A stretch of 64,000 bases of DNA from Escherichia phage NJ01. Positions within the stretch are counted from its first letter, which is position 1. Each line of letters starts with the position of its first letter. Positions 25,701-36,793 of the stretch are shown here, piece after piece. The notes under the pieces were generated by a model that was not told the DNA's origin, did no database searches, and saw only the letters and a list, made by a program, of their open reading frames with translations. The stretch lies in sequence record NC_018835.1; one strand, written 5' to 3'. Position numbers and translations under genes: made by a program.

Positions 25701-25749
25701 TGCTATCAATGGGTTAACGATAGAGTTTGCTGTTGGCGGACGGAGATAA
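22732..25749 (+). CDS. tail protein (1005 aa) with four tandem BIG2-like Ig domains
   Basis: Repeated about 80-aa units of BIG2 type (e.g. TLTAVTGKTPVTWSSSNASIVSV, ILTATLSPANAPNQNITWTSSNPNIATV). Confidence 0.5.
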   Translation: MALYPIKSLGAVGVIADQAPTDLAPNAFTNAINARFVEQRVFKTGGNAPLSYVDEDKDLTPLSFVSMPFDYYSAGNSFLVVGTDKKLYKLTDESLTDISRKVATVTKKASASIKIYPVVSQIVPKESTISMNFNQTKNLEVSLLPADANNTDLVWEVSNSSYGSITVDPSDSKLATLTSFEREGNLVVTISTADDSVVAQIAVNIIDGDSGIFLSQDTVTIRKGGTTTLTAVTGKTPVTWSSSNASIVSVTPNANSLTAVITANGEGNVTITADNGTKTASCEVVSIPQIDSITLSQSDVIVSRGSQYILTATLSPANAPNQNITWTSSNPNIATVSGTSTQGTVNALLAGFTEITATTEEGNRVAVCTVRVDLAGRAMRTSAMAFAAPASEPIESQEEEVVTPPESEEMVYFAEPTSGIDTSGMYEGNSFYDYSNVNDIEGFARASLFATPLSSVTLDVVSASLDVGEEIVITATASPEGDYSYQWSVDKTGYVSTTSVTGKSIKLVALRKGEINVTCTVSQMTQKDYDAFDDYPWYHAVISNCAVATTHYETPQVKEFESEYFVDLPGWGEQTVVDNDGNPSVKKFNWKCERVRSFNNRLFALNMREANASGVTTNYPLRLRWSNFANENKAPTLWDDFAYDRVVSSDLASNIVGQTQALENGYAGYIDLADSNGSLIDILPLKDYLFVYTEFETYIGSPTNNTYQPLMFKKLFNDSGILAPECVVEVEGSHFVVTQNDVILHNGATKKSIASNRVKNMLINEVCLVNPLATRVHLHQDKKEVWVLYVGPGEPKESFACTKAAVWNYEFDTWSFRTIPYAQCIGLVDPPVLERGPIWSDFQEITWDDPSIKELVWRKDATNFRQRVTIVGSFLRGFYQVDVGALDYFYDRLNDVVIEKPLEMRLERTGLDFDNVTNEWNQKHINRFRPQTTGSGTYTFEAGGSQFSNEYGHPHTSKTYTIGVDRHVSVRLNHPYLFYNVIDNDVNSNAAINGLTIEFAVGGRR

Positions 25750-25754
25750 CAACA

Positions 25755-25782
25755 AGGGGCTTCGTGCCCCTTTTATTGTTTT
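25755..25782 (+). terminator. rho-independent terminator
   Basis: GGGGC-TTCGT-GCCCC followed by TTTTATTGTTTT. Confidence 0.5.
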
Positions 25783-25792
25783 GGAGGAACTT

Positions 25793-26761
25793 ATGGGTGC
25801 AGGTGGTTTTCGTAAGAACACTGGTCGTAATAACACCACACTCCCGTACAACGTTGGGTTTCTCAATAATGTACAGGACACAGAAACATATAACGTAGCC
25901 GTATATGACGAGCTACAGAAAGTCAGTACAGCTACTAACCAAATGTTCCAAGCTATTGATGAGATTCACGATGAGATTGATGTTCGTATCAAAGCTCTTC
26001 ATGCGATGAATCTACAATTTGATGAGCTTGAGAACAGAATTACCACAGAGATTGAAACAGCTATCGCAGATATTATAACACAGATGGGGAATCTCTCCAC
26101 TGAAGATATTTGGGATAATTCTGTTCAACCTCCTGTAAAATTAGAAAGCACTGTATCTGGCTTTAAGACAAGTATTGAAGGTAACACAACTAAGATTCAA
26201 ACGGTAGAAGGGATTGTTAACGACCAAGGTCAAGAGATTGCTTTAGTTCAGACAGAGATTCAAAATATCAATGGAAGCCTCTCTCAGTATATGAAGCTTT
26301 CTGAGTATGAAGCTACTTGGGGTGTTAACTCTACGGTCAACGGAAGATACGCTGGGGTCAAGTTAACTAACAACGGAACAAACAGTCAATTCCAAGTAAC
26401 AGCTAACAAGTTTATTGTTGGTGATGGCAGCTCTGGTAATACCCCTTTTGTATTTGAAGGCGGAAGAGCTAGGATGGAATTCGCTGACATAAAGAACGTC
26501 AACATCACAACAGCTCAGATTGCCAACGCTAGAATTCAATGGGCACAGATTGATAACGTATCTATCTCCAATGCTCAAATTCAGAACTTATCAGCGGATA
26601 AAATCACTGCTGGTTCTATGTGGGGTTCTAACTGGAGACTTACTGTTGGGGGTGACTTTGTTATGGGTGGCACAGGTGGTTCTCAGTTGTGGATGAATGG
26701 TAATAGAATAGATTTTTATGATGGGAGTGGAACTCTTCGCATAAGAATAGGGAGTTGGTAA
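25793..26761 (+). CDS. tail-associated protein with coiled-coil region (start moved to ATG at 25793)
   Basis: Track ORF starts 25727 inside terminator; ATG at 25793 has GGAGGA RBS. Confidence 0.45.
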   Translation: MGAGGFRKNTGRNNTTLPYNVGFLNNVQDTETYNVAVYDELQKVSTATNQMFQAIDEIHDEIDVRIKALHAMNLQFDELENRITTEIETAIADIITQMGNLSTEDIWDNSVQPPVKLESTVSGFKTSIEGNTTKIQTVEGIVNDQGQEIALVQTEIQNINGSLSQYMKLSEYEATWGVNSTVNGRYAGVKLTNNGTNSQFQVTANKFIVGDGSSGNTPFVFEGGRARMEFADIKNVNITTAQIANARIQWAQIDNVSISNAQIQNLSADKITAGSMWGSNWRLTVGGDFVMGGTGGSQLWMNGNRIDFYDGSGTLRIRIGSW

Positions 26762-26762
26762 T

Positions 26763-27797
26763 ATGGCGTATGGAATATGGACAAGACCGGTCGGTCCGGG
26801 GCCAGCAGCACCTGCTGATATTTACATTGACAGTGGTAGCACATTCCCTCAGTTAAGAAACAGGGTCAGTGGTAATTTTTCTTTTAATGGTAACACATGT
26901 GATCTACCTATAAGCGGTTGGGATGGAAGTGGTCAGATAGTTGTAGTCCCAACAGGGTCTGTTGTTTGGGAGAGATACATACCTCCTAATGTAACATCTG
27001 ATGTGTATTGGCTAACGGATATATCTGTTATTAATAACTCAACCTTCAGAGTTACTATGGATTATAATGTAAACGGTTGGGTATTTGATATGGCTTTTAA
27101 TGTATATCAAATATGGCCTAGAGCTAACAGGAACTATGGAATCACATTCTCCAACTCTGCTGACTATTTCTCAATCTCTGATTCTGGAGTTGTTGGTCAA
27201 TGTATTTGGGCTTGGGAGGGTGACATAAATGGTGCTCTTCAAATACCAGATATTGGTGGTTTTGATATGAGCCGAGCAACTGTCTACGCGAATTGGAGTA
27301 ACGGCGGAGCAGGTCTGCTATACAACCCATCCAATAGGGTTGTTTATGTGTACCAGAACAGGTCTCATGATAATGGTAACACAAACCAAACAGGGTACAT
27401 TGGTGGTGTTAGGATTGCCGTCTTCTGTGATGGTTCGGGAGTACCAACCCACAATGGAGGTTTAAATATCTTTTCTCCAAATGGGTCTCAGTGTGTTTTT
27501 TCTACATATAGAACCCCTTTTAGTGTTGAGGGGTTTATGCCTATGAGTGGTGGTAACACATCTTTGGCCTATCCAATGATACCTCTATCTTATGGTGCTG
27601 GAGCAATAAGAGGTAAGGCTAGTGGTTGGTATTTTCAACACACAAGATCTCACATGATGAATGGCTCTTCTTTTGGTACAGGTTTCGGAAGGATGATTTA
27701 CTCTTGGAGTAGTCAATATGATTTAGGAGGGGGTGGTGCCCTCGGGTTAAGTATTCCAATATTAGATGCTAGAAAGATATTCAGGAGTATACAATAA
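26763..27797 (+). CDS. tail/structural protein (344 aa)
   Basis: ORF track; Gly/Asn/Ser-rich. Confidence 0.45.
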   Translation: MAYGIWTRPVGPGPAAPADIYIDSGSTFPQLRNRVSGNFSFNGNTCDLPISGWDGSGQIVVVPTGSVVWERYIPPNVTSDVYWLTDISVINNSTFRVTMDYNVNGWVFDMAFNVYQIWPRANRNYGITFSNSADYFSISDSGVVGQCIWAWEGDINGALQIPDIGGFDMSRATVYANWSNGGAGLLYNPSNRVVYVYQNRSHDNGNTNQTGYIGGVRIAVFCDGSGVPTHNGGLNIFSPNGSQCVFSTYRTPFSVEGFMPMSGGNTSLAYPMIPLSYGAGAIRGKASGWYFQHTRSHMMNGSSFGTGFGRMIYSWSSQYDLGGGGALGLSIPILDARKIFRSIQ

Positions 27798-27806
27798 GGA
27801 GATATT

Positions 27807-28589
27807 ATGGCAATTAGAATGGGTATCGAAGAACTAGACCCAATGGTACAGCAAGCTTCAAAGAAGTATGGGATTCCTGCTGCTTTGATTCATGCTGTAA
27901 TCCAAAGAGAGTCTAGTGGACGTCCTAAAGTAGCCTCTGGAACTGGTCCTGTAGGTCTAATGCAGATCAGTAAAGGGTTGGCTAAAGACTATGGATACAA
28001 ACTAGAAGATAGACTGGACCCAGCAAAGAATATTGACATGGGTGCTCGTTATATCAGAGATAACTTAAAAGCTTTTAATGGTGATATTAAGAAAGCAATG
28101 GTTGGTTACTCTGAAGGGACAGGGGGTGCTAGGCAGATGTTTGCTGGTAAGAAAGGGTTTACCCCTCAGGCTCTAGACTCAATGAACAATAAACATTTTC
28201 TTCCTTTTTACGGTGATGCAGCTTCTCAGATTGCTAACCCAATTGGGGCTTTACAAGCTGTTCAACCAGCCAATCAGTTTAATCCTGACCTGTTAGATAG
28301 AGAGAAGGCTGCACAAGCTCCCACTCAGGCAGAGATTGCTGCTTCTAAGACGGGTGCTTTAGGTGGTAATCCGGTAGAGTTTTACTCTGATGAAGTACAG
28401 GAGGGTGAAGACCAGAAGCCTCAACAGAACTTTGGTAATGCAGTATTAGGAGTAGCTGCTATGCTTGCTGGTAAACCTCCTACTTCTCAAACAGTTCAGA
28501 GGGCAAGTGCACCTCATGCAGCAGGTTCTCAGTACAGTCCACAAACACAAGCAGTGCTTAGACGTTTGGCTAGCATTGGTGTTAAGTAA
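27807..28589 (+). CDS. lytic transglycosylase (SLT domain), probably virion-associated
   Basis: IQRESSGRP...GLMQIS SLT catalytic motif. Confidence 0.65.
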   Translation: MAIRMGIEELDPMVQQASKKYGIPAALIHAVIQRESSGRPKVASGTGPVGLMQISKGLAKDYGYKLEDRLDPAKNIDMGARYIRDNLKAFNGDIKKAMVGYSEGTGGARQMFAGKKGFTPQALDSMNNKHFLPFYGDAASQIANPIGALQAVQPANQFNPDLLDREKAAQAPTQAEIAASKTGALGGNPVEFYSDEVQEGEDQKPQQNFGNAVLGVAAMLAGKPPTSQTVQRASAPHAAGSQYSPQTQAVLRRLASIGVK

Positions 28590-28608
28590 TAGTCATTAAG
28601 GAGGACTT

Positions 28609-29661
28609 ATGTCTTTATTTGGAAAATCAGCTTCTAGCAAAACCACAGTGGCTCCTTCCTCTCAGGTTGATGCCCTGCTGAAGCAGATTGTTGCTAATGC
28701 TCAGAATATGCAGAACAACGATCAGGGATTTATTTCCCAACAGCTGGCTGGGTTTAATGGCAACCAACAAGGTGCTCTGAATAACTTAGCAGCTTCTACA
28801 ACTCAAAAACAATTGGCTGATATGTACACACCTCGTACACAGCAAGGTTTGGACCAACTGAACTCTCTTGCCAAACAGTATCAGAATATTGTTAATGGTG
28901 GCGGTTTAACTGCTGATGGTGTTAACAACTTTAGTAAAGGATTAAATAGCTCAGCTCTTGCTCAGGCTACTAGCAAAGCAGCTTCTAATGTTTCTCTTGG
29001 CAATGGCTCTGATTCAGGCTCTCTCCGTAGGGCTGCGGCTCAAGGGGCGGCTTTGAATGGTGCTAATACAAATCTATCTCGTACCATCAATGGTAAGAAC
29101 ATGGGAATCAGTGCTCTTCAACAAGACCAGAACTTCCAGAGAGGTTTGCTTGGTGCTCAGTCTGGTTTAGCTGGACAGAATCTCAATCTTGGTGCTCAAG
29201 GTGTTCAGGCAACTCAGCAAGCTATCCAGAATCAACTTATGGCTGGTAATCTACAACAGCAACAAGCTCAAGCTCAAGCAGATATCAATTGGCAAAACGC
29301 TATTGGTTCTCAGCAGTATGGATGGAATCAGCTTAACAACCAGCTTAATGTATTAAACAGTGTAAGCCCGATGGCTGGATACACAATTAAGAATGCTGCT
29401 CCGGGAGTTAATACTGGACAACAGCTCCTAGGTGCTGGTATCACTGGCTTGGGTATTGCAGGTCGTTTGGGTGCTTTCTCTCCTAACCAACAGACCCAGA
29501 ATGCTTGGAGTTCCTATAACAACTCAGGTGGGCAGTCTGGTATGGCTGGTCCTATGATTGGAGGTTCTAATCTTTCTCAACAGAAAGGTCAGTCTAACTG
29601 GTTATCCACAACGGGTAATAATATCTTAGGCGGTGTCTTAGGGGCATTCGGAGCAAACTAA
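28609..29661 (+). CDS. Q/N/G-rich low-complexity internal virion protein
   Basis: Gln/Asn/Gly/Ser-rich; paralog of next gene (shared MxLFGxxxSKTT N-terminus). Confidence 0.45.
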   Translation: MSLFGKSASSKTTVAPSSQVDALLKQIVANAQNMQNNDQGFISQQLAGFNGNQQGALNNLAASTTQKQLADMYTPRTQQGLDQLNSLAKQYQNIVNGGGLTADGVNNFSKGLNSSALAQATSKAASNVSLGNGSDSGSLRRAAAQGAALNGANTNLSRTINGKNMGISALQQDQNFQRGLLGAQSGLAGQNLNLGAQGVQATQQAIQNQLMAGNLQQQQAQAQADINWQNAIGSQQYGWNQLNNQLNVLNSVSPMAGYTIKNAAPGVNTGQQLLGAGITGLGIAGRLGAFSPNQQTQNAWSSYNNSGGQSGMAGPMIGGSNLSQQKGQSNWLSTTGNNILGGVLGAFGAN

Positions 29662-29673
29662 AGGAGATTTGAT

Positions 29674-30642
29674 ATGGCTTTATTTGGAGGAGGGAATAGT
29701 AAAACTACTTCCCAAATGATTCGCCCTGAATACATTCAACAGTATATTGACCAGCTTAACCAGCAGATTGGTAATACTAGTTCAGGGGATTATGTTTATC
29801 GTGACAATGTAGGGTTTAATAACAACCAGACAGAAGCTCTTAACAACTTGGCACAATCTGGTGCTCTAGGGACTCTCTCACAACAATACATGGATGCAGC
29901 AGGCCAAGGGTTGGGTTATCTAGATAATGCCTATAAAGGCTACCAGAGCCTTTCTGGACAAGGTGGGGTTACTGGAGAACAGATTGGTGCTCTTGCTGGT
30001 CAATTGTATGATGACGATGCTGTGCAAGCAGCTATTACAGCTAATAACGAACAAGTTCAACAGAACCTAGCACGTAATGCTTTGCCTCAGTTAGCTCAAC
30101 AGTATGCTGGTCAGCAGGGTTCAGGTGCTCGTATGGCTAAATCTTTCGCTCAAGGCGATGCTCTGAATCAGATGCAAGGACAAGCAACAGATATTACCAA
30201 TAGCGCCTATAACTCAGCTATTAGTCAAGCTGAAAGCATCCTCTCTGGTAATAGGCAGAATCAGGCAGCTGCTCTCTCAGGTCTTTCTACTATCGGTTCT
30301 AATCTTTCTAACTTAGGCCAGCAAGGTGCTAATTTGTCTCAACAGCAAATGATGAATCAATGGAATGCAGGGTTGCAGCAACAACAGCAACAACAGAATG
30401 AATATGATAATGCCTACCAGAATGCTCAGAACGCAGCTAATTGGGGATGGCAAGATATCAACAACCAACTCGGTGCAGCAGGTGTACTTAACGGCGCTCT
30501 CGGACAAACTACAACTACTAAAACATCTGGTGGGGGTGGTGGCTTCTTAGGTGGAGCTATGAGTGGTGCAGCAGCTGGTTCTTCTTTTGGTCCTTGGGGT
30601 GCTTTGGCTGGAGGGGTGATTGGCGGGATGGCTAGTTCTTAA
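29674..30642 (+). CDS. Q/N/G-rich low-complexity internal virion protein (paralog)
   Basis: polyQ stretch QQQQQQQ, Gly-rich C-terminus. Confidence 0.45.
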   Translation: MALFGGGNSKTTSQMIRPEYIQQYIDQLNQQIGNTSSGDYVYRDNVGFNNNQTEALNNLAQSGALGTLSQQYMDAAGQGLGYLDNAYKGYQSLSGQGGVTGEQIGALAGQLYDDDAVQAAITANNEQVQQNLARNALPQLAQQYAGQQGSGARMAKSFAQGDALNQMQGQATDITNSAYNSAISQAESILSGNRQNQAAALSGLSTIGSNLSNLGQQGANLSQQQMMNQWNAGLQQQQQQQNEYDNAYQNAQNAANWGWQDINNQLGAAGVLNGALGQTTTTKTSGGGGGFLGGAMSGAAAGSSFGPWGALAGGVIGGMASS

Positions 30643-30655
30643 TTAGGAGATAAAT

Positions 30656-32305
30656 ATGCAACAGACAACTTATGCTCAGGTCAGAAGTCGCGACCCGAGA
30701 AATACTTTCTATGGTGTTAATCCGGGAGCGGCTTCGGCCTCTCCTTATATGGCTAGACCTATTCAGACATCAGATGTTTCTATGTACCAACGTCCTGCTG
30801 TACCTGCTGGACTTTCCCGTCTTGTAGGTCAAACTTCAGTAGATTATCAGAACATGCTGAACCCTGTTCAGAGTAATGGACTCCCTTCTGATATTCCTAA
30901 TGACGTACAACCTCAAGCACAACAAGCTGTAACTCTTCCTGAGCCTAACAATCAGGAAACTGTGCAAGATGCCGGACCTTCTCCTTCTTCTATTCCTCAG
31001 GAATCAGAACCTCTTCCGGTAACACCTCCCACTAAACCGCTAGAAGCTGGTCCTATGGAGTTTACTCCTTCTCAGGTGGAACAGGCACAAGGTGTGGTTA
31101 ACACTCTTGCTCAAGGACAAGACACTGGTGATGGTATGGCTGCTGCTACTCGTGCTAAAGATCAGGAACGTGTTAACAATGACATCATGCAGGTTGCTAA
31201 AGCTAAAGACCCTTCAGAAGCTTGGAATAAACTACAGAAAGAACCTTTCTATCAGAACTCTAGTTTCTATACAGGTTTGATGGGTGTAGGTCTCTCTATC
31301 ATGTCAGGTAAGTCTCCTATCGAAGCGTTCCAGATTGGTCAAGGAATGGCTAATCAAGATGAGACTAAGAAGCAACTAGAAGCTAACCGTGATGCATTGG
31401 TTGAACAGGGTTTCTCTCAAGACTCAATTGCAGCTGCTATAGCTCAGGGTGATCCTTCTCTTCTGAAGATGAAAGCTAAAGACCCTCTTCAACAGGAAGC
31501 TCTGTATGCTGCTCGTGAAGAACGTCAGAATGCTGAGTGGGATAGACGTCAACAGATTCAAGAACAGACTATGCGTGAGCGTGCTGATGAGACTCGACGT
31601 GCCGCTGAAGAAAGAGCTAACATGAACTTTGAACGTCAGAAAGAGTTGATCGGCTTCCGTGATAAGGTTAAGGCTGAACGTGCTGAACAAGCTGCTCAGA
31701 GTTTTAACTTTAACCCGAAAGAAGTTCGTCTTGCTCAGAACACCGCTGAAGGTACAGTTGCTAAGCAGTGGGCTGAGAAGGGTGGTCTGTTTAATCAGTC
31801 CAACAAAGACTTGGATTTGGCTGACAAAGCAGTTAAAGATAAAGATTACCAGACAGCTCGTTCTGCTTACATGCAGGCTATTATGAACTCTGCAAGGGCT
31901 GAAATTGGTGCTACTCGCTCTCTTACCGAAGAAGACTTGGGACATTTTGCAGAAGACCCATCGGTCTTTATCCGTGTAGGTAACAAGTTTGCTCTGAAGT
32001 CAGGATGGCGTCCTACTGACTCTGCTCTTTCTTATGCTCGTAAGCAGGCCAATGTTGGTCACACCTCTGCGATGAAAGGTGTTGCTGATGCTAAGAGAGC
32101 TACTATCGAAGCATATATTGGTTCTGGTATGGACAAGAAAAGAGCTACTGCATTGGTTAACCGTGCAATTCCTTCTGGTGGTTTCTATGACCCTCTCGGT
32201 GTTTTCTCTGAGCAAGCAGAAGAGTCAGTTGGTGGTGCAGCAACCAATCCTAAACTGAATGGTGCTCTATCGGCTGTTGAAGACACTAGCTGGTTCACTG
32301 AGTAA
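30656..32305 (+). CDS. internal virion protein with hydrophobic segment (549 aa)
   Basis: Pro/Gln-rich N-terminus, hydrophobic FYTGLMGVGLSIMSG, coiled-coil. Confidence 0.45.
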   Translation: MQQTTYAQVRSRDPRNTFYGVNPGAASASPYMARPIQTSDVSMYQRPAVPAGLSRLVGQTSVDYQNMLNPVQSNGLPSDIPNDVQPQAQQAVTLPEPNNQETVQDAGPSPSSIPQESEPLPVTPPTKPLEAGPMEFTPSQVEQAQGVVNTLAQGQDTGDGMAAATRAKDQERVNNDIMQVAKAKDPSEAWNKLQKEPFYQNSSFYTGLMGVGLSIMSGKSPIEAFQIGQGMANQDETKKQLEANRDALVEQGFSQDSIAAAIAQGDPSLLKMKAKDPLQQEALYAAREERQNAEWDRRQQIQEQTMRERADETRRAAEERANMNFERQKELIGFRDKVKAERAEQAAQSFNFNPKEVRLAQNTAEGTVAKQWAEKGGLFNQSNKDLDLADKAVKDKDYQTARSAYMQAIMNSARAEIGATRSLTEEDLGHFAEDPSVFIRVGNKFALKSGWRPTDSALSYARKQANVGHTSAMKGVADAKRATIEAYIGSGMDKKRATALVNRAIPSGGFYDPLGVFSEQAEESVGGAATNPKLNGALSAVEDTSWFTE

Positions 32306-32371: not shown

Positions 32372-35300
32372 ATGGCTAACATTAAACCGTGGGAAGAAGC
32401 TTCCAAAGCTCCTGCGTATCTGAATGCCTCTCCGGAGCGTCAAGCTCAAATGAGAGAACAATATAAGGCAGCAGGTGGCTCTATTCCTGAGGAACAACCA
32501 GTAGCACAACCACAACAAGAAGAACGTGGTGCTGTAGGTGAGTTTGCTCAAGGTGTGTCAAATGCTCTTCAGTCCGGCAGTGCTAATATCTCTGCTAACC
32601 TTTCTAGAGGTATTGGTGGTTTAGTTGAGATTGGTGAAGACCTAGTTGGAGCACAAACCGGCTATGGTAAACGTATGCAAGAGAACGCCCAGAACCTTCT
32701 TAAAGATCGTATGGATAAGATTGAGGATGGGATTGGTAAAACTGCTGGTCAGTATGCTGGAGTGGTTGCTGACATTGGTTTGACAGTTGCTAACCCGTTA
32801 GCTGCCGCTGCTATCATCGCAGGTCGTGAGACAGGTCGTGCATATGCAGACCAAACCCCTAAAGAGGGAGAAGACAAATCCGTTCTGGATGCAGCTCTTG
32901 TTGGTGGTGCTAACTATGCAGCTCAGAGAATTCTTCCGGGTGCTGTTGGTACAGCTGAATCCGCACTTGGTCGTATCGGTCAGAACGTTGCTAGTAACGC
33001 AGTGGCTGGTGCTAAGGGTGGTGCTATTGTTGGTGCTGCTGAAGCTCAGAACAAACATGGTGACGATAACAACCTAGCCAAGACATTAGAAGGTGTTATA
33101 GAAGAAGGGGCTATGGGTGCTGCATTTGGTGGTGCAGTTGGTGGTGTTCATGGTTTGATTAGTCGTCCAGATTCTGCTGTCTTTAAGAATACTCCAGAGT
33201 ATGCAAAGACTGACATTGCTGCTGATGATGAATTAATTCGTAGTGCTAAGAACGTTGATGAACTGAAAGAAGCCTACTCTAAAGCTGATACTGCTAACGC
33301 TGCTTCTGCTCTTAATCTTCTGGATGAGAATGGATTCCGTATCACGGACGCTGTTGCTGTGGATTCTCCTGCTGCTCAGCGTATTCTTAATACAGACCAA
33401 GCTCGTGCTGAGAAAGCTGCTTCTGCTCAGAAAGAGCATTCTAACATTCCGGGCCTTAATCCTTTGGCTTCTCCTGCTAAAGTTCGTGGTAAAGCATTCG
33501 CTGATAATGAACACAATCAGAAGCAAGCTGTCGCTATGAAAGATGCAATGGCTGACTACACCAAGGATAACACGAAAGCTCTTACAGATGTTCTAGATAA
33601 CCTAGACCGTGAATTAACTTCTCTTAGAGCATCTGGACACTTCACCGGTAGTCCACTTGACGTTAAGAATCGCACACAAGCTGACCGTGATTTCATTGAT
33701 GCTTACAAGACTTTCTACAACGAGGCGAATCGATTCAAAGCTCGTGATGGTGAAGACTTTAATAACTTTGTAGAGAAAGCTGCTGAGCTACAGAAGATGG
33801 CTGATAACGTTTCTCCAGAGATGAAGAAAGCTATTGGCGGGTTGAAGAAACTGAAAGGTATGCCTGAAGGTTTTAATCCCATTCAAGATGCCTACACTCT
33901 GAACAATACAGCTAAATTCATGAGCAACCAAGACCGTGGTTGGACTTCCCTGACTGATGATGGCTTCCGTGAGACTTCTTCTCCTAGTCTGGTTATGAAC
34001 ACCCTTGGTGCTGCTAAGTATGCTATAAACCGCTTCTCTTCTCAGCGTGCTCGCTCTCAACGTGTTAAGCAACAAGAGGCTAACAGTGAAGCTATCCGCT
34101 CTCTGGCTCGTGGTGATTTGGAAGTTGCTCGTGCTAAATCTACTGCTGATGAAGCTCGTGCTAAAATGGAAGAAGAACCAGTTGTTGATGACATTAAATT
34201 CAAGACGCAAAATGACGTAGAAACCGAACCGGTTCGGGAGCCTTCTTCTAGTACTGTGACGGAAGAAAATCTTCCTTCTTCTGCTCCTCAAGAATCTCCT
34301 CTTACAGCTCGTGATTTAGTTGCGCAAAGACGTGCTATCCGTCAGGCTGAACAGCGTCGTGCTGAAGAAGAGGCAGCTGCTGCTCAAGAAGCTCCGGTTG
34401 AACAGGCTCCACAGGCTGAACCACTCCCTGCTCGTAATCCTTTAGAGGAACGTCGTGCAATGGAACAGCAACGTGCTCAAGAAGAGGCCGCACAGGCTCC
34501 AGAACCAACCGTAGAGGAACCAACAGCCAAAGCTGAGCCATTACCTGCTCGTGCTCCTAAAGCTCCTGAGGAAGCTGTACAGGACGTTAAACCGGAAAGC
34601 GGTATAGAGTACCTAGCTGCTATGTCAAGTACTGCTCGTCAAGTTGCTAGAGATCGTGCAACACGTTTTGCTAAATCCTTATACTCTAAGGCTGCTAAGG
34701 CTAAAGCTACTGCTGAAAACTTCTTAGCTTACAAAGGCGACCCTTTGGAGTTGATGCGTCGTATTCGTCGGGAAGATAATGCTATCAACACTGAACGTCA
34801 TGAAGAGATGGCTCGTAATCAGTTAGCTTCTCAGCAAGGTATTGCTACTGCTAAGAACAACACTGTACGAACTAATTTTGCTGAATGGGTTAAGGAACGT
34901 GGTCTGCCAGAAGACATTGCTACTAAGGCATTACGTGCTGAAGAGAAAGGTTTAGGTGGGAACGTGACTAACTTAGATAGTCTGAAACGTCGTGCTGAGA
35001 GATTGTATCAGAAGCAGCGTGAGGATGAGTTTGATAGGCTGTACCAAGAAGCTCTGGAAGAGAACAAAGCTTTCGATAAGAAGGATGCTCCTAAATTGGT
35101 TGACCAGAAGAAAGAGCTTCAGTCTGAGATTGATACTTTGATTGATTCAGAACCTTTACGTCCTGCTCAGAAAGATGCTATGCGCAAGCTGATGAATGAT
35201 TATGTAGATGGGAAGTTTAAATCTTCAGAGAAGGCTGGTAGAGAAGAGGCTTTGGAAGTTGGTCAGATGAAGGATGTTTGGGATGGGTTTATTAACACCT

Positions 35301-36793
35301 ATAACAGAGAAGTGAATGCCTTCAACAAAGCTAACAAGAACTCTCAATACGAAGCTGCTGCTAAACACTTGCAGGCTCGTGAAGAACGTCTTGCTACTCT
35401 GAGAAATAAAGCTCAGGCTCGTTCAGATGCTAAAGCTGCTGTTGAAAATGAACGTAAAACTCTAGAGGCTATTGCAGCTCAGAAGAGTGAGATTGAGAAG
35501 ATGATGGAAGGTTTACCTAAGCCTGTTCGTGAAGCTCAGGAATCTCGTACATTGAAACAGTTGGCTGCTCACCATGATAAGAACTCTCCAGTTCCTCCAG
35601 AGAAGTTCCGTAGTTACATTGAACGTATCCATAACGCCGAGTCAGATTACCTTGACCGTCAGCGTCGTTTAACTGATGCAGAGGAAGATGCTCGTCAGGC
35701 TAAGTGGAATAAGATGTATGAGCAAGCGGAAGAGATGGACCGTAAATTTGATATAGACAAAAGAGTTAAACGCAGTGAAGAGCTTAAAGCGGCTCAGAAG
35801 CGTGAGAATGATCTCATGGCAGTACAACGTCAACGTGACGACATTCATCGTCGCCTGATGCATACTTTGGAAGATAAAGGCATATCTAAAGAGGATGCTG
35901 AAGCATTTGCTGGTTCCTACATGGATAACCGTTATGCACTTCTTGATAAGCCTATGACTCCTACTGAACATCAGAATGCTCGTTCTCGTATCGAAGCTGA
36001 TGTTGAGAAGTTTGCTAAGAAGTACGAATCAATGACCCCTATCGAGAAAGAGATTGTTAAGATTACTGGAGATACTGAAGGTAAGCTTGATAACTTGGAT
36101 GCGGATACTAGGAAGGCTGTTGAGGAGGCTCAGAAGGTTGACTCTGATATTAAGAAACTGCAAGAGGAAGAGTTGGAGATGGAGAAGATTCGTTCTGCTC
36201 TGCCTGACGATGAAAAATCTCAAGCAAATTCTGATATCTTGGAAAGTATCAAACAGCAGGAAGAAGTCTTTGCTGATAAAGTAGAGAAAGCTTTCTTAAG
36301 CGGGAAGAGCTTGGATGAGTTGGCTAGTGTGGCTGAAGTTTTAGACAGGGTTCATGGTGCAGACAAGGCTGGTAACAACCGTCGCTTTGTACGTGCATTG
36401 CAGACTGCTGCTGAAAACAAGAAGAAGTATGGTGATAATCCGGTAGCTTGGTTTAGTGCTGATGATTATTCTGCTATTGCTAAACTTGGTGCTTCTTCCG
36501 CAGGTGGTAACAAATCTAGAGCACTGGAGAAGATCTTTGGTTCTACAGCTGAACAAGCTAAGAGTAAGTTGCTTGGTAGGGATGATGTAGCGAAGATGAG
36601 ACGTGTAATTGAAGAGAACCCTGATGTTAAGATTCCTTCTTACAAGACAACGAATCGTACTGAGTACTTGCAGTTCTTGGAGAAGTTTAATGACGAAGGG
36701 AAGCCGAAGATTAAACGTGGCTCATTGTCAGAGAAGCTTGAACGCAGTAAGCGTCAATCGAGACTCCGTGTAAGAGTTCGACCTAAGGAGTGA
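32372..36793 (+). CDS. large internal virion / ejection protein (1473 aa), coiled-coil rich
   Basis: Very long charged alpha-helical ORF at end of structural module; not clearly a tape measure. Confidence 0.55.
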   Translation: MANIKPWEEASKAPAYLNASPERQAQMREQYKAAGGSIPEEQPVAQPQQEERGAVGEFAQGVSNALQSGSANISANLSRGIGGLVEIGEDLVGAQTGYGKRMQENAQNLLKDRMDKIEDGIGKTAGQYAGVVADIGLTVANPLAAAAIIAGRETGRAYADQTPKEGEDKSVLDAALVGGANYAAQRILPGAVGTAESALGRIGQNVASNAVAGAKGGAIVGAAEAQNKHGDDNNLAKTLEGVIEEGAMGAAFGGAVGGVHGLISRPDSAVFKNTPEYAKTDIAADDELIRSAKNVDELKEAYSKADTANAASALNLLDENGFRITDAVAVDSPAAQRILNTDQARAEKAASAQKEHSNIPGLNPLASPAKVRGKAFADNEHNQKQAVAMKDAMADYTKDNTKALTDVLDNLDRELTSLRASGHFTGSPLDVKNRTQADRDFIDAYKTFYNEANRFKARDGEDFNNFVEKAAELQKMADNVSPEMKKAIGGLKKLKGMPEGFNPIQDAYTLNNTAKFMSNQDRGWTSLTDDGFRETSSPSLVMNTLGAAKYAINRFSSQRARSQRVKQQEANSEAIRSLARGDLEVARAKSTADEARAKMEEEPVVDDIKFKTQNDVETEPVREPSSSTVTEENLPSSAPQESPLTARDLVAQRRAIRQAEQRRAEEEAAAAQEAPVEQAPQAEPLPARNPLEERRAMEQQRAQEEAAQAPEPTVEEPTAKAEPLPARAPKAPEEAVQDVKPESGIEYLAAMSSTARQVARDRATRFAKSLYSKAAKAKATAENFLAYKGDPLELMRRIRREDNAINTERHEEMARNQLASQQGIATAKNNTVRTNFAEWVKERGLPEDIATKALRAEEKGLGGNVTNLDSLKRRAERLYQKQREDEFDRLYQEALEENKAFDKKDAPKLVDQKKELQSEIDTLIDSEPLRPAQKDAMRKLMNDYVDGKFKSSEKAGREEALEVGQMKDVWDGFINTYNREVNAFNKANKNSQYEAAAKHLQAREERLATLRNKAQARSDAKAAVENERKTLEAIAAQKSEIEKMMEGLPKPVREAQESRTLKQLAAHHDKNSPVPPEKFRSYIERIHNAESDYLDRQRRLTDAEEDARQAKWNKMYEQAEEMDRKFDIDKRVKRSEELKAAQKRENDLMAVQRQRDDIHRRLMHTLEDKGISKEDAEAFAGSYMDNRYALLDKPMTPTEHQNARSRIEADVEKFAKKYESMTPIEKEIVKITGDTEGKLDNLDADTRKAVEEAQKVDSDIKKLQEEELEMEKIRSALPDDEKSQANSDILESIKQQEEVFADKVEKAFLSGKSLDELASVAEVLDRVHGADKAGNNRRFVRALQTAAENKKKYGDNPVAWFSADDYSAIAKLGASSAGGNKSRALEKIFGSTAEQAKSKLLGRDDVAKMRRVIEENPDVKIPSYKTTNRTEYLQFLEKFNDEGKPKIKRGSLSEKLERSKRQSRLRVRVRPKE

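Follow-up and report, generated by a model that had tools for sequence, protein, structure and literature searches.

The DNA analysed (the window) is a 64,000-nt stretch of Escherichia phage NJ01 (NC_018835.1), which belongs to the genus Kuravirus (phiEco32/SU10-like E. coli podophages); all positions are those of the whole stretch. An earlier note, made from the letters alone, had picked out two consecutive ORFs, here termed ORF A and ORF B, and both are present at exactly the coordinates it gave, each preceded by a strong Shine-Dalgarno sequence (Table 1). Comparison with SU10 gave dN/dS values of 0.056 and 0.050 for the two genes (dS ∼0.36–0.40), that is, strong purifying selection on both; they are real genes, and therefore not low-complexity sequence adrift. 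The dominance of Gln, Asn, Gly and Ser that had attracted attention was also borne out: the four residues (Q 14.3, N 12.6, G 13.7 and S 9.4 % in ORF A) make up 50.0 % of ORF A and 48.4 % of ORF B, against 22–35 % in the remaining virion proteins of the window, and the charged residues (K+R+D+E) amount to 6.9 and 8.4 %, respectively, against 11–33 %. Leu (8–10 %) and Ala (13–14 %) are abundant in both proteins.

Table 1. Features of the ORF A/ORF B locus in the window.
Feature	Position	Strand	Length	Basis or remarks
SLT lytic transglycosylase gene	27807-28589	+		PF01464 E 2.7e-24; phrog_12507; synteny with SU10 gp20
Shine-Dalgarno AAGGAGG, ORF A	28598-28604	+		Sequence read directly; strong
ORF A	28609-29661	+	350 aa	phrog_4287; SU10 gp21 orthologue by sequence, 95.4 % identity
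N-terminal motif MSLFGKSASSKTT, ORF A	28609-28647	+		Family consensus MxLFGG...TT
Predicted continuous Gln-rich helix, ORF A residues 137-255	29017-29373	+	119 residues	AF2 (92-sequence alignment), pLDDT 67-94
First glycine-zipper-like hydrophobic segment LLGAGITGLGIAGRLGAFS, ORF A residues 273-291	29425-29481	+		Small-xxx-small motifs
Second, C-terminal Gly-zipper-like segment NILGGVLGAFGAN, ORF A residues 338-350	29620-29658	+		Translation, alignment
Shine-Dalgarno AAGGAG, ORF B	29661-29666	+		Sequence read directly; strong
ORF B	29674-30642	+	322 aa	phrog_4287; SU10 gp22 counterpart ('DNA injection protein')
N-terminal motif MALFGGGNSKTT, ORF B	29674-29709	+		Translation and family alignment
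Seven-Gln run, ORF B residues 235-241	30376-30396	+		Mixed CAG/CAA codons
C-terminal glycine-zipper tail SGGGGGFLGGAMSGAAAGSSFGPWGALAGGVIGGMASS, ORF B residues 285-322	30526-30639	+		Resembles P22 gp7 tail
549-aa protein, SU10 gp23 position	30656-32305	+	549 aa	Ejection protein; periplasmic-tunnel slot of other cassettes
1473-aa protein, SU10 gp24 position, equal length	32372-36793	+	1473 aa	Ejection protein; large gp16-like slot of other cassettes

The finer features that the note had listed were recovered as well, namely a common N-terminus in the two proteins, a polyQ run in ORF B and Gly-rich tails in both. The length of the polyQ run is not conserved, varying from 2 to 8 among homologues. 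The tails differ between the copies: ORF A has two separated Gly segments, whereas ORF B has one continuous 38-residue tail, a near copy of which also terminates unrelated protein bodies, four of them sharing the tail alone. AlphaFold2 (AF2) monomer models, of low to moderate confidence overall (pLDDT 51 and 66), predicted both proteins to be almost wholly alpha-helical (pLDDT reaching 94) and the Gly tail to be unstructured; the long predicted helix of ORF A contains a block of conserved columns, AGNLQQQQ...WQNAIGSQQYGWNQLNNQLN. Comparison of the monomer models with the PDB returned generic coiled coils only, a sequence-profile search of the PDB gave a best E of 0.09 (noise), and a Pfam scan of ORF A and ORF B matched no family. 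The Gly tails are weakly hydrophobic, with Kyte-Doolittle maxima of 1.26 in ORF A (in its first zipper-like segment) and 0.94 in ORF B, lower than a classical transmembrane helix gives, and the amphipathicity of the predicted helices was not significant (z from 0 to 2.9), with no clear 3.5-residue period. Both properties would count against a model in which these proteins form a channel.

The neighbours named in the note, an SLT transglycosylase upstream and two larger proteins downstream, are likewise in place, and the position of the pair among ejection or internal proteins was confirmed: the SLT gene opens a five-gene ejection cassette that is syntenic with SU10 gp20–24. The gene order is identical in the two phages, which belong to the same genus and show no substantive difference here, and SU10 gp21 and gp22 have the same lengths as ORF A and ORF B and are ∼95 % identical to them. 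On this evidence the two ORFs are orthologous to gp21 and gp22 of SU10, the former of which is 'hypothetical' in the published annotation; the gene block is contained in 97 phage records. The note had named absence from purified virions as the result that would speak against it. In the close relative SU10, mass spectrometry (MS) of virions revealed both gp21 and gp22 (PMC4281155; Supplementary Table 1 of PMC9509320), an outcome that favours the note, and in Proteus phage Privateer the single-copy homologue (gp018) bears an annotation of MS verification in virions. SU10 gp20, which has transglycosylase activity, and gp21–24 are missing from genome-release intermediates and were for that reason named ejection proteins; the authors consider it probable that these proteins prolong the nozzle as a channel across the periplasm, and gp21 and gp22 have no resolved density in the virion map (PMC9509320). 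Virion location and loss on genome release have thus been shown by others, in SU10, and the gene pair, correctly recognised by the note, was mostly already known; by itself it is ordinary, being one element of the ejection proteins documented for SU10-like phages, which serve as therapeutic and typing coliphages. New here are the membership of PHROG 4287, the architecture of the module, the kinship with Bruynoghevirus gp56 and LUZ24 gp53, the probable link to P22 gp7, and the relatives that carry an S74 domain or are fused to giant proteins.

A duplicated module of the PHROG 4287 family

BLASTP with compositional adjustment aligned ORF A with ORF B at 32 % identity over 275 residues (E 3e-12), and the families of the two proteins align end to end with motifs in common, so that the paralogy proposed in the note is real and goes beyond shared composition. 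Both proteins match phrog_4287, 'DNA ejection protein': ORF A at E 2.4e-117, with residues 1–350 on profile positions 1–392, and ORF B at E 5.8e-107, with residues 1–310. As judged from sequence, the pair arose by tandem duplication of a single, widespread module of ejection proteins, PHROG 4287, in which ORF A is the more diverged copy and ORF B the copy nearer to the single-copy relatives. A profile built from 42 members of the A and B families retrieved 649 representatives at E ≤ 1e-3 (78 at E ≤ 1e-10) among the cluster representatives of a 1.84-billion-protein library, and nearly all of the matches span the whole module. A tblastn search of phages with ORF A returned Kuravirus-like records only and missed even the paralogue, probably as a result of low-complexity masking.

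From N to C the module consists of a short Gly-rich N-terminus ending in KTT, a body of ∼250 residues that is rich in Gln, Asn, Ala and Leu, almost uncharged and predicted to form long alpha-helices, a TTT-GGGG hinge, and a glycine-zipper tail, for which Pfam glycine-zipper matches in relatives were weak and sub-threshold. Among the papers searched, none joined 'glycine zipper' to 'ejection protein'.

This composition can also be read functionally, with the Q/N-rich proteins acting through a prion-like, gel-like or phase-separated state in the capsid, for example as a matrix round the DNA or the portal. The Q+N content of 25–27 % and the run of seven Gln would suit such a role, as would the SU10 head, in which gp21 and gp22 have no ordered density, and the low-confidence monomer models. 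Nevertheless, we consider it most unlikely. Selection is strong (dN/dS 0.05), position-specific motifs are kept across homologues that are 40 % identical, and homologues of 20–30 % identity still align over their full length. The predicted helices reach a pLDDT of 94, the content of Leu and Ala is high, the polyQ length is unconserved, and the SU10 orthologues leave the particle at genome release; with nearly no charged residues, electrostatic binding to DNA would also be improbable. The term 'prion-like' in the note accordingly describes the composition (Q+N 26.9 % in ORF A and 25.2 % in ORF B) but not the selection, the motifs or the predicted structure of these proteins. The composition is found throughout the family (means of 22.9 % Q+N and 9.5 % charged residues in 246 members) and is approached by P22 gp7 (17.9 % Q+N), and nothing in the analysis supports the gel-like internal matrix that the note had suggested.

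The relatives in PHROG 4287 are either single-copy proteins with a self-cleaving S74 domain or form the front part of giant fusion proteins. A cell-wall hydrolase domain is present in one of these giants, in keeping with the mosaic exchange of domains known among ejection proteins. The S74 domain (Peptidase_S74, PF13884), an intramolecular chaperone known from trimeric tail fibres and spikes, is C-terminal and was found in 10 of 92 family members (best E 6.7e-11), including the single-copy relative GAP52 gp022 (residues 328–382); it is absent from ORF A and ORF B in the Pfam scan. As a domain typical of trimeric fibres, it fits a 6- to 12-fold pore poorly. In GAP52, gp023 and gp024 were rejected as a second paralogue.

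The occurrence of S74 in the family raises the question of whether ORF A and ORF B could be trimeric coiled-coil proteins forming a fibre or plug at the tail needle or lumen, and be lost along with the needle. The SU10 needle also departs at genome release (PMC9509320), so that loss alone is no proof of a location in the head. Even so, a fibre or plug seems very unlikely. The model of the SU10 tail left no component unassigned, and its needle was assigned to gp18; the Kuravirus copies do not have the domain; and in the relatives that do, it follows the Gly tail, such that the predicted cleavage would remove it and leave a mature protein resembling ORF B. The surrounding cassette and the relationship to gp56 and gp7, considered below, likewise favour internal proteins.

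Relatives among other ejection cassettes

Bruynoghevirus gp56 is a virion component by MS, and that of Pa223 has been proposed to be a gp14-like outer-membrane channel, with an AlphaFold3 model of a nonameric pore (bioRxiv 10.1101/2025.06.11.659172). LUZ24 gp53 (313 aa) appears to be its counterpart, the two being equated by size and gene position. LUZ24 gp53 scored 46.4 bits against the iterated family profile (hmmsearch), and hhalign aligned it with the family over its full length (probability 96 %, E 4.6e-9, 271 columns); LUZ24 gp53, whose own family is phrog_7477, also matches phrog_4287 at E 2e-10. Pairwise BLASTP of gp53 against ORF A and ORF B was not significant. Like ORF A and ORF B, it has GG..KTT close to its N-terminal end, a helical body rich in Gln and TTSSGGGGGG followed by a Gly-zipper tail, is of similar size, and is encoded upstream of a ∼500-aa and then a >1000-aa protein; unlike them, it is single-copy and has an N-terminal extension of 24 residues. 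These profile matches place Bruynoghevirus gp56/LUZ24 gp53 within the same superfamily as ORF A and ORF B. BLASTP found no similarity between Kuravirus gp23/gp24 and LUZ24 gp51/gp50, so the synteny argument with LUZ24 is one of size and order only.

P22 gp7 is probably a more distant relative. Comparison of the 246-sequence family profile with a P22 gp7 profile gave a probability of 69.6 % and a score of 37.6, for a gp7 alignment that is shallow (at least 69 % identity), against scores of 8.8–24.1 for 15 reversed or shuffled controls. The alignment was collinear (48–318 against 43–230, 180 columns), and the narrow A1 profile reached 18.5 % only. PF25688 (P22_gp7) did not match ORF A or ORF B at E ≤ 0.01, nor the 42 members at E ≤ 1, and it matched 1 of 92 broader family members (E 0.0027). 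The tail motif PWGA..GG is common to ORF B (PWGALAGG, residue 307) and P22 gp7 (PWGAAIGG, residue 213) but is lacking in ORF A. P22 gp7 resembles the pair in being Q/N/G/A-rich and poorly charged (Q+N 17.9 %, K+R+D+E 10.5 %), in having a Gly-rich N-terminus (after a cleaved leader) and a C-terminal glycine-zipper tail, and in its place as the first and smallest ejection protein ('DNA transfer protein') of its own cassette. It differs in length (229 aa against 322–350 aa) and in being single-copy, and the P22 cassette, unlike that of Kuravirus, has no separate gene for the lytic enzyme. P22 gp20 gave no signal in profile comparison and was rejected as a relative.

T7 gp14 is the outer-membrane pore of the T7 ejectosome, and gp14/gp7 proteins are ∼200 aa long (PMC8954989). 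As a sequence relative it was ruled out (hhalign probability 0.1 %). It is similar to what we propose for ORF A and ORF B, as a small, first-ejected, membrane-inserting helical protein at the head of its cassette, but it has 196 aa, an ordinary composition (K+R+D+E 20.4 %) and no glycine-zipper tail. Homology with the phiX174 pilot protein H was also ruled out (hhalign probability 0.3 %), and its PHROG, phrog_1471, gave no cross-match with that of the pair. Sun et al. (Nature, 2014) reportedly described H as a decameric coiled-coil DNA tube lined by Gln, Asn and Arg, with a Gly-rich transmembrane end. The likeness to ORF A and ORF B is by analogy only: H has 328 aa, a long helical stretch rich in Gln and a Gly-rich segment for the membrane (MFGAIAGGIASALAGGAMSKLFGGG), but its Gly segment is N-terminal, not C-terminal, and it comes from an ssDNA microvirus. 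H illustrates that helical tubes lined with amides are able to conduct DNA.

A proposed place at the entry of the DNA channel

The order SLT, ORF A, ORF B, 549-aa protein, 1473-aa protein corresponds to that of other cassettes, in which small membrane protein(s) are followed by one of ∼500 aa and one of >1000 aa, and the gp14-like gene as a rule stands at the head, before those for the tunnel and large inner-membrane proteins (PMC8954989). The reading that we favour, and regard as rather probable, is that ORF A and ORF B encode internal virion proteins that are packaged in the head and expelled at infection, and that they represent the gp14-like or P22 gp7-like first ejection protein, a membrane-proximal part of the channel. 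The proteins would share the head with the DNA and make their exit by way of the portal and tail, the module leaving the head in an extended form. We infer the target membrane, the oligomer and the respective roles of the paralogues: the module would oligomerise at the tip of the nozzle, the glycine-zipper tails would insert into the host (outer) membrane, the first stretch of the conduit would be lined by the long polar helices, and the two proteins could build one mixed ring or two rings in succession. The SLT protein, gp20, would cut the peptidoglycan, and gp23 and gp24 may extend the conduit through the periplasm and inner membrane.

A different place in the conduit can also be envisaged, with ORF A and ORF B as ejection proteins that form the periplasmic tube or a part of the inner-membrane conduit or, in a variant, with one paralogue serving each membrane. 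If straight, the helix of 119 residues predicted for ORF A would measure ∼18 nm, of the order needed to span the periplasm; there are two paralogues, and their tails differ; and at 322–350 aa both are well over the size of gp14/gp7 proteins. Moreover, the SU10 nozzle lengthens the tail by 28 nm (PMC9509320), and therefore the outer membrane may be crossed without a dedicated pore. We nevertheless think this arrangement unlikely, as ORF A and ORF B occupy the gp14/gp7-like gene slot, before the ∼500-aa and >1000-aa proteins, their relative Bruynoghevirus gp56 is read by its authors as an outer-membrane component, and P22 gp7, the probable distant relative, is reported to be the first protein to assemble on the tail hub (PMC13622523).

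The proposal that the pair forms the first-ejected part of the channel can be extended, more tentatively and as a reading less likely than not, to one ancient superfamily comprising Kuravirus gp21/gp22, Bruynoghevirus gp56, P22 gp7, the S74 proteins of the Grimontviridae and the first 300 residues of giant phage proteins (800–1600 aa), of which there are hundreds. Its members would combine an amide-rich, almost uncharged helical body that lines the conduit with a portable glycine-zipper anchor for the membrane at the C-terminus, and in Kuraviruses the channel would be hetero-oligomeric or have two tiers, both made from the pair, which, if this is true, would be the first ejectosome entry pore built from paralogues. 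Should the family link hold, the in situ structures of the P22 channel that are beginning to appear could serve as templates for many podophages, and it would become possible to test whether the glycine-zipper tail and the amide-rich helices determine the opening of the outer membrane by short-tailed phages. As for pore diversification, the duplication itself represents a natural experiment.

The tandem pair and its SU10 counterparts

The 4.6-kb stretch around ORF A and ORF B is 91-96 % identical in DNA sequence to ~70 Escherichia and Shigella phages of the genus Kuravirus, including 172-1, SGF2, phiEco32, SU10 and ES17. The surrounding ORFs match the SU10 late operon gene by gene, in the order nozzle protein, tail needle, a 344-aa DUF6453 protein, SLT transglycosylase, ORF A, ORF B (after a gap of 12 bases), and proteins of 549 and 1473 aa. 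The earlier note's description of the two ORFs was confirmed from the sequence with respect to coordinates, N-termini (MSLFGKSASSKTT in ORF A, MALFGGGNSKTT in ORF B), richness in Gln, Asn, Gly and Ser (together 50.0 % and 48.4 %, respectively), the polyQ run (seven Gln, in ORF B) and Gly-rich C-terminal tails, which contain many small-xxx-small motifs. Charged residues account for 6.9 % of ORF A and 8.4 % of ORF B, compared with 11-33 % in the window's other virion proteins. The paralogy that had been claimed was also borne out: composition-adjusted BLASTP aligned 275 residues at 32 % identity (E 3e-12), 42 members of the A and B families could be aligned end to end with common motifs, and the likeness exceeds shared composition. 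The dN/dS values relative to SU10 (0.056 for ORF A and 0.050 for ORF B, at dS of ~0.36-0.40) indicate that both are tightly constrained proteins.

Features of the NJ01 locus and of related loci
Feature	Sequence	Coordinates	Strand	Remarks
Tail-needle ORF, as mechanically called	window	25727-26761	+	344 aa; TTG start within nozzle-gene end
DUF6453 protein	window	26763-27797	+	344 aa; between tail needle and SLT genes; RefSeq 'membrane protein'
ORF A	window	28609-29661	+	350 aa; strong Shine-Dalgarno site
ORF B	window	29674-30642	+	322 aa; strong Shine-Dalgarno site
Short ORF inside ORF B	window	30313-30507	-	rejected
Short ORF inside ORF B	window	30365-30550	+	rejected
gp52	LUZ24	31877-32257	-	126 aa
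gp022	Cronobacter phage GAP52	6974-8206		single-copy homologue
gp018	Proteus phage Privateer	6980-8209		single-copy homologue
Distant Kuravirus-like element	DAHCAP010000002.1	204317-225285		389-kb contig of E. coli assembly GCA_023211535.1

ORF A shares 95.4 % identity with SU10 gp21 (350 aa), and ORF B matches SU10 gp22 in both position and length (322 aa); RefSeq labels both as 'DNA ejection protein'. The products gp20, gp21, gp22, gp23 and gp24 were all detected in the 2014 SU10 proteomics (PMC4281155), and gp21 and gp22 are among the structural proteins detected in the 2022 cryo-EM study (Supplementary Table 1), in which they had no resolved density and were proposed to lengthen the nozzle into a periplasm-crossing channel, with gp20 degrading the peptidoglycan (PMC9509320). 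Storage in the head and exit at genome release have been shown by others for SU10 gp21 and gp22, and it is as Kuravirus ejection proteins that the pair is already known. Experiment in this near-identical phage supports the earlier placement among ejection or internal proteins; the earlier note had looked to purified virions for a decision, and in SU10 both proteins were found there by proteomics.

Relatives within and beyond PHROG 4287

ORF A and ORF B matched no Pfam family and, by sequence, no solved structure; both matched the ejection-protein family PHROG 4287 over their full length. A family profile built from 42 A and B homologues and searched against 1.84 billion cluster representatives returned 649 proteins at E <= 1e-3, of which 78 reached E <= 1e-10; almost every one spans the whole module. 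The relatives are of three kinds. The A+B pair is kept down to ~40 % identity. The other prolate podophages, namely Cronobacter GAP52, the 7-11-like Salmonella phages SE131 and SeKF_80, Proteus Privateer and phages of Aeromonas, have single-copy proteins of ~410-425 aa; GAP52 gp022 gave an hhalign probability of 99.4 %, and the annotation of the Privateer protein records verification by MS in virions. In the third kind, which includes many uncultured-phage proteins (P0145-P0246), the module forms the first ~300 residues of 800-1600 aa. One of them, P0149, combines the module with S74 and with a cell-wall hydrolase domain (Hydrolase_2); the remainder of these giant relatives matched no Pfam or PHROG family. 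Single-copy relatives matched ORF B at E 1e-17 to 1e-19 and ORF A at 5e-9 or weaker, and since ORF B is the nearer, it looks like the conservative copy and ORF A the diverged one.

Members share a Gly-rich N-terminus that finishes with KTT, helices carrying two conserved blocks (AGLN..QQ.AL, followed by AGN.QQQ...YQN..G.Q..W..INN.LN), a hinge (TTT-GGGG) and a Gly-zipper tail with the pattern LGGAMSGAAAG..FGPWGALAGG..GG; some have an extra domain after the tail. Four proteins (P0046-P0049) with bodies unrelated to A and B end in variants of GGAMSGAAAGxxFGPWGALAGG that closely copy the tail of ORF B, and their N-termini are Gly-rich or read GSSKTT. The tail thus behaves as a portable module, and the termini of these proteins seem to be exchangeable modules on differing helical bodies.

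In the single-copy relatives the Gly tail is followed by a Peptidase_S74 intramolecular-chaperone/autoprotease domain, normally a feature of tail fibres or spikes. In GAP52 gp022 and Privateer gp018, from Grimontviridae, this domain directly abuts the Gly-zipper tail (...GWW|SDASMKK...). In these homologues an internal ejection protein would lose the domain by cleavage, which would imply a trimeric folding intermediate.

Bruynoghevirus gp56 (313 aa) has been assigned as a 'gp14-like' outer-membrane channel of ~2x the usual size and modelled by the Pa223 authors with AlphaFold3 as a nonameric pore; downstream lie a periplasmic-tunnel protein (505 aa) and a gp16-like protein (1055 aa) (bioRxiv 10.1101/2025.06.11.659172). 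We equated Pa223 gp56 with LUZ24 gp53 by size and gene position. LUZ24 gp53 has the motifs of the Kuravirus pair, and it scored 46 bits against an iterated 246-sequence family profile, aligned with the family by hhalign over its full length (probability 96 %, E 4.6e-9) and cross-matched phrog_4287 (E 2e-10). By these profile matches, the pair and gp56 form a single superfamily. Between LUZ24 gp53 and gp51 lies gp52, a small Gly/Ala-rich virion protein whose C-terminal SKLFGG echoes the Kuravirus N-terminal MxLFGG.

By eye, P22 gp7 is strikingly similar to ORF A and ORF B: it abounds in Q, N, G and A, 10.5 % of its residues are charged, and its tail is GGGASGAIAGAGLAKLIGSSTPWGAAIGGGIGLLGSLF. 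Its Pfam family, PF25688, matched neither ORF; one family member matched it at E 0.0027. Against the gp7 profile, a narrow family profile gave 18.5 % probability and a broad one a collinear alignment at 69.6 % with a score of 37.6, where 15 reversed, column-shuffled or block-shuffled control profiles scored 8.8-24.1. We regard distant homology to P22 gp7 as probable. T7 gp14, P22 gp20 and phiX174 H gave no hhalign signal against the family.

What the superfamily view adds is kinship with gp56 and probably with gp7, a glycine-zipper tail that behaves as portable, relatives that carry S74 or are fused into giant proteins, and a duplication in which B appears to be the conservative copy; no report of these points was found in the literature searched.

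Predicted structure and a possible conduit

AF2 monomer models of both proteins were all-alpha. For ORF B (42 sequences) the pLDDT was 51; for ORF A (92 sequences) it was 65.9, reaching 69-94 in residues 10-110 and 200-250, with residues 137-255 predicted as one 119-residue helix and the final 95 residues unstructured. The predicted helices showed no significant amphipathicity. Fold searches returned only generic coiled coils from the PDB and, from viral models, weak matches enriched in S74-bearing proteins and in small proteins labelled 'internal virion' or 'DNA transfer'. Such a picture is usual for ejection proteins, which refold between stored and ejected states (reviewed in PMC8954989).

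From the family links, cassette position and architecture, we infer that the pair would form the first element of the conduit, the one nearest the membrane. The proteins would leave the head extended, via portal and nozzle, oligomerise at the nozzle tip and anchor in the outer membrane by their glycine-zipper tails, with amide side chains lining the lumen; gp23 and gp24 would supply the rest of the path and gp20 would cut the wall. With almost no charge, the proteins would be suited to threading through the narrow channel of the tail as well as to entering a membrane, and the presence of two paralogues points to a ring of mixed composition or to two tiers. The tails are only weakly hydrophobic, which counts against this mechanism, as does the S74 domain of the relatives, which hints at a trimeric stage. 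A role in the periplasm or inner membrane instead is unlikely, and a needle-associated trimer is very improbable. The gel-like matrix of the earlier note, prompted by the prion-like composition, is marginally less probable again and the least supported of these alternatives, in view of the tight sequence constraint, the conserved motifs and the predicted helices. The part of that interpretation which stands is that of ejection proteins and a likely channel.

Neighbouring ORFs and a distant element

A distant Kuravirus-like element was found in an E. coli assembly (see table) and also in a 64-kb Logan contig. It carries SU10-type capsid (PF17236) and portal (PF23899) genes, the capsid gene differing in order by lying ahead of terminase and portal, and a cassette of SLT, A-like (39 % identity) and B-like (43 % identity) genes followed by genes for 498 and 1113 aa. 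A near match was absent from 5,426 complete E. coli genomes and 50,697 phage records, and the element may be an assembly artefact or else a rare prophage related to the strictly lytic Kuraviruses.

The DUF6453 protein is the counterpart of SU10 gp19, which, according to the SU10 tables, is the sole gene of its block without detection in virions. The tail needle is annotated as 322 aa in SU10 and 172-1, with a start further downstream, and is more likely to have this length than the longer one. The two overlapping short ORFs inside ORF B are mirror artefacts and not genes; one has a poly-Leu run because the CAG/CAA Gln run is read on the reverse strand.
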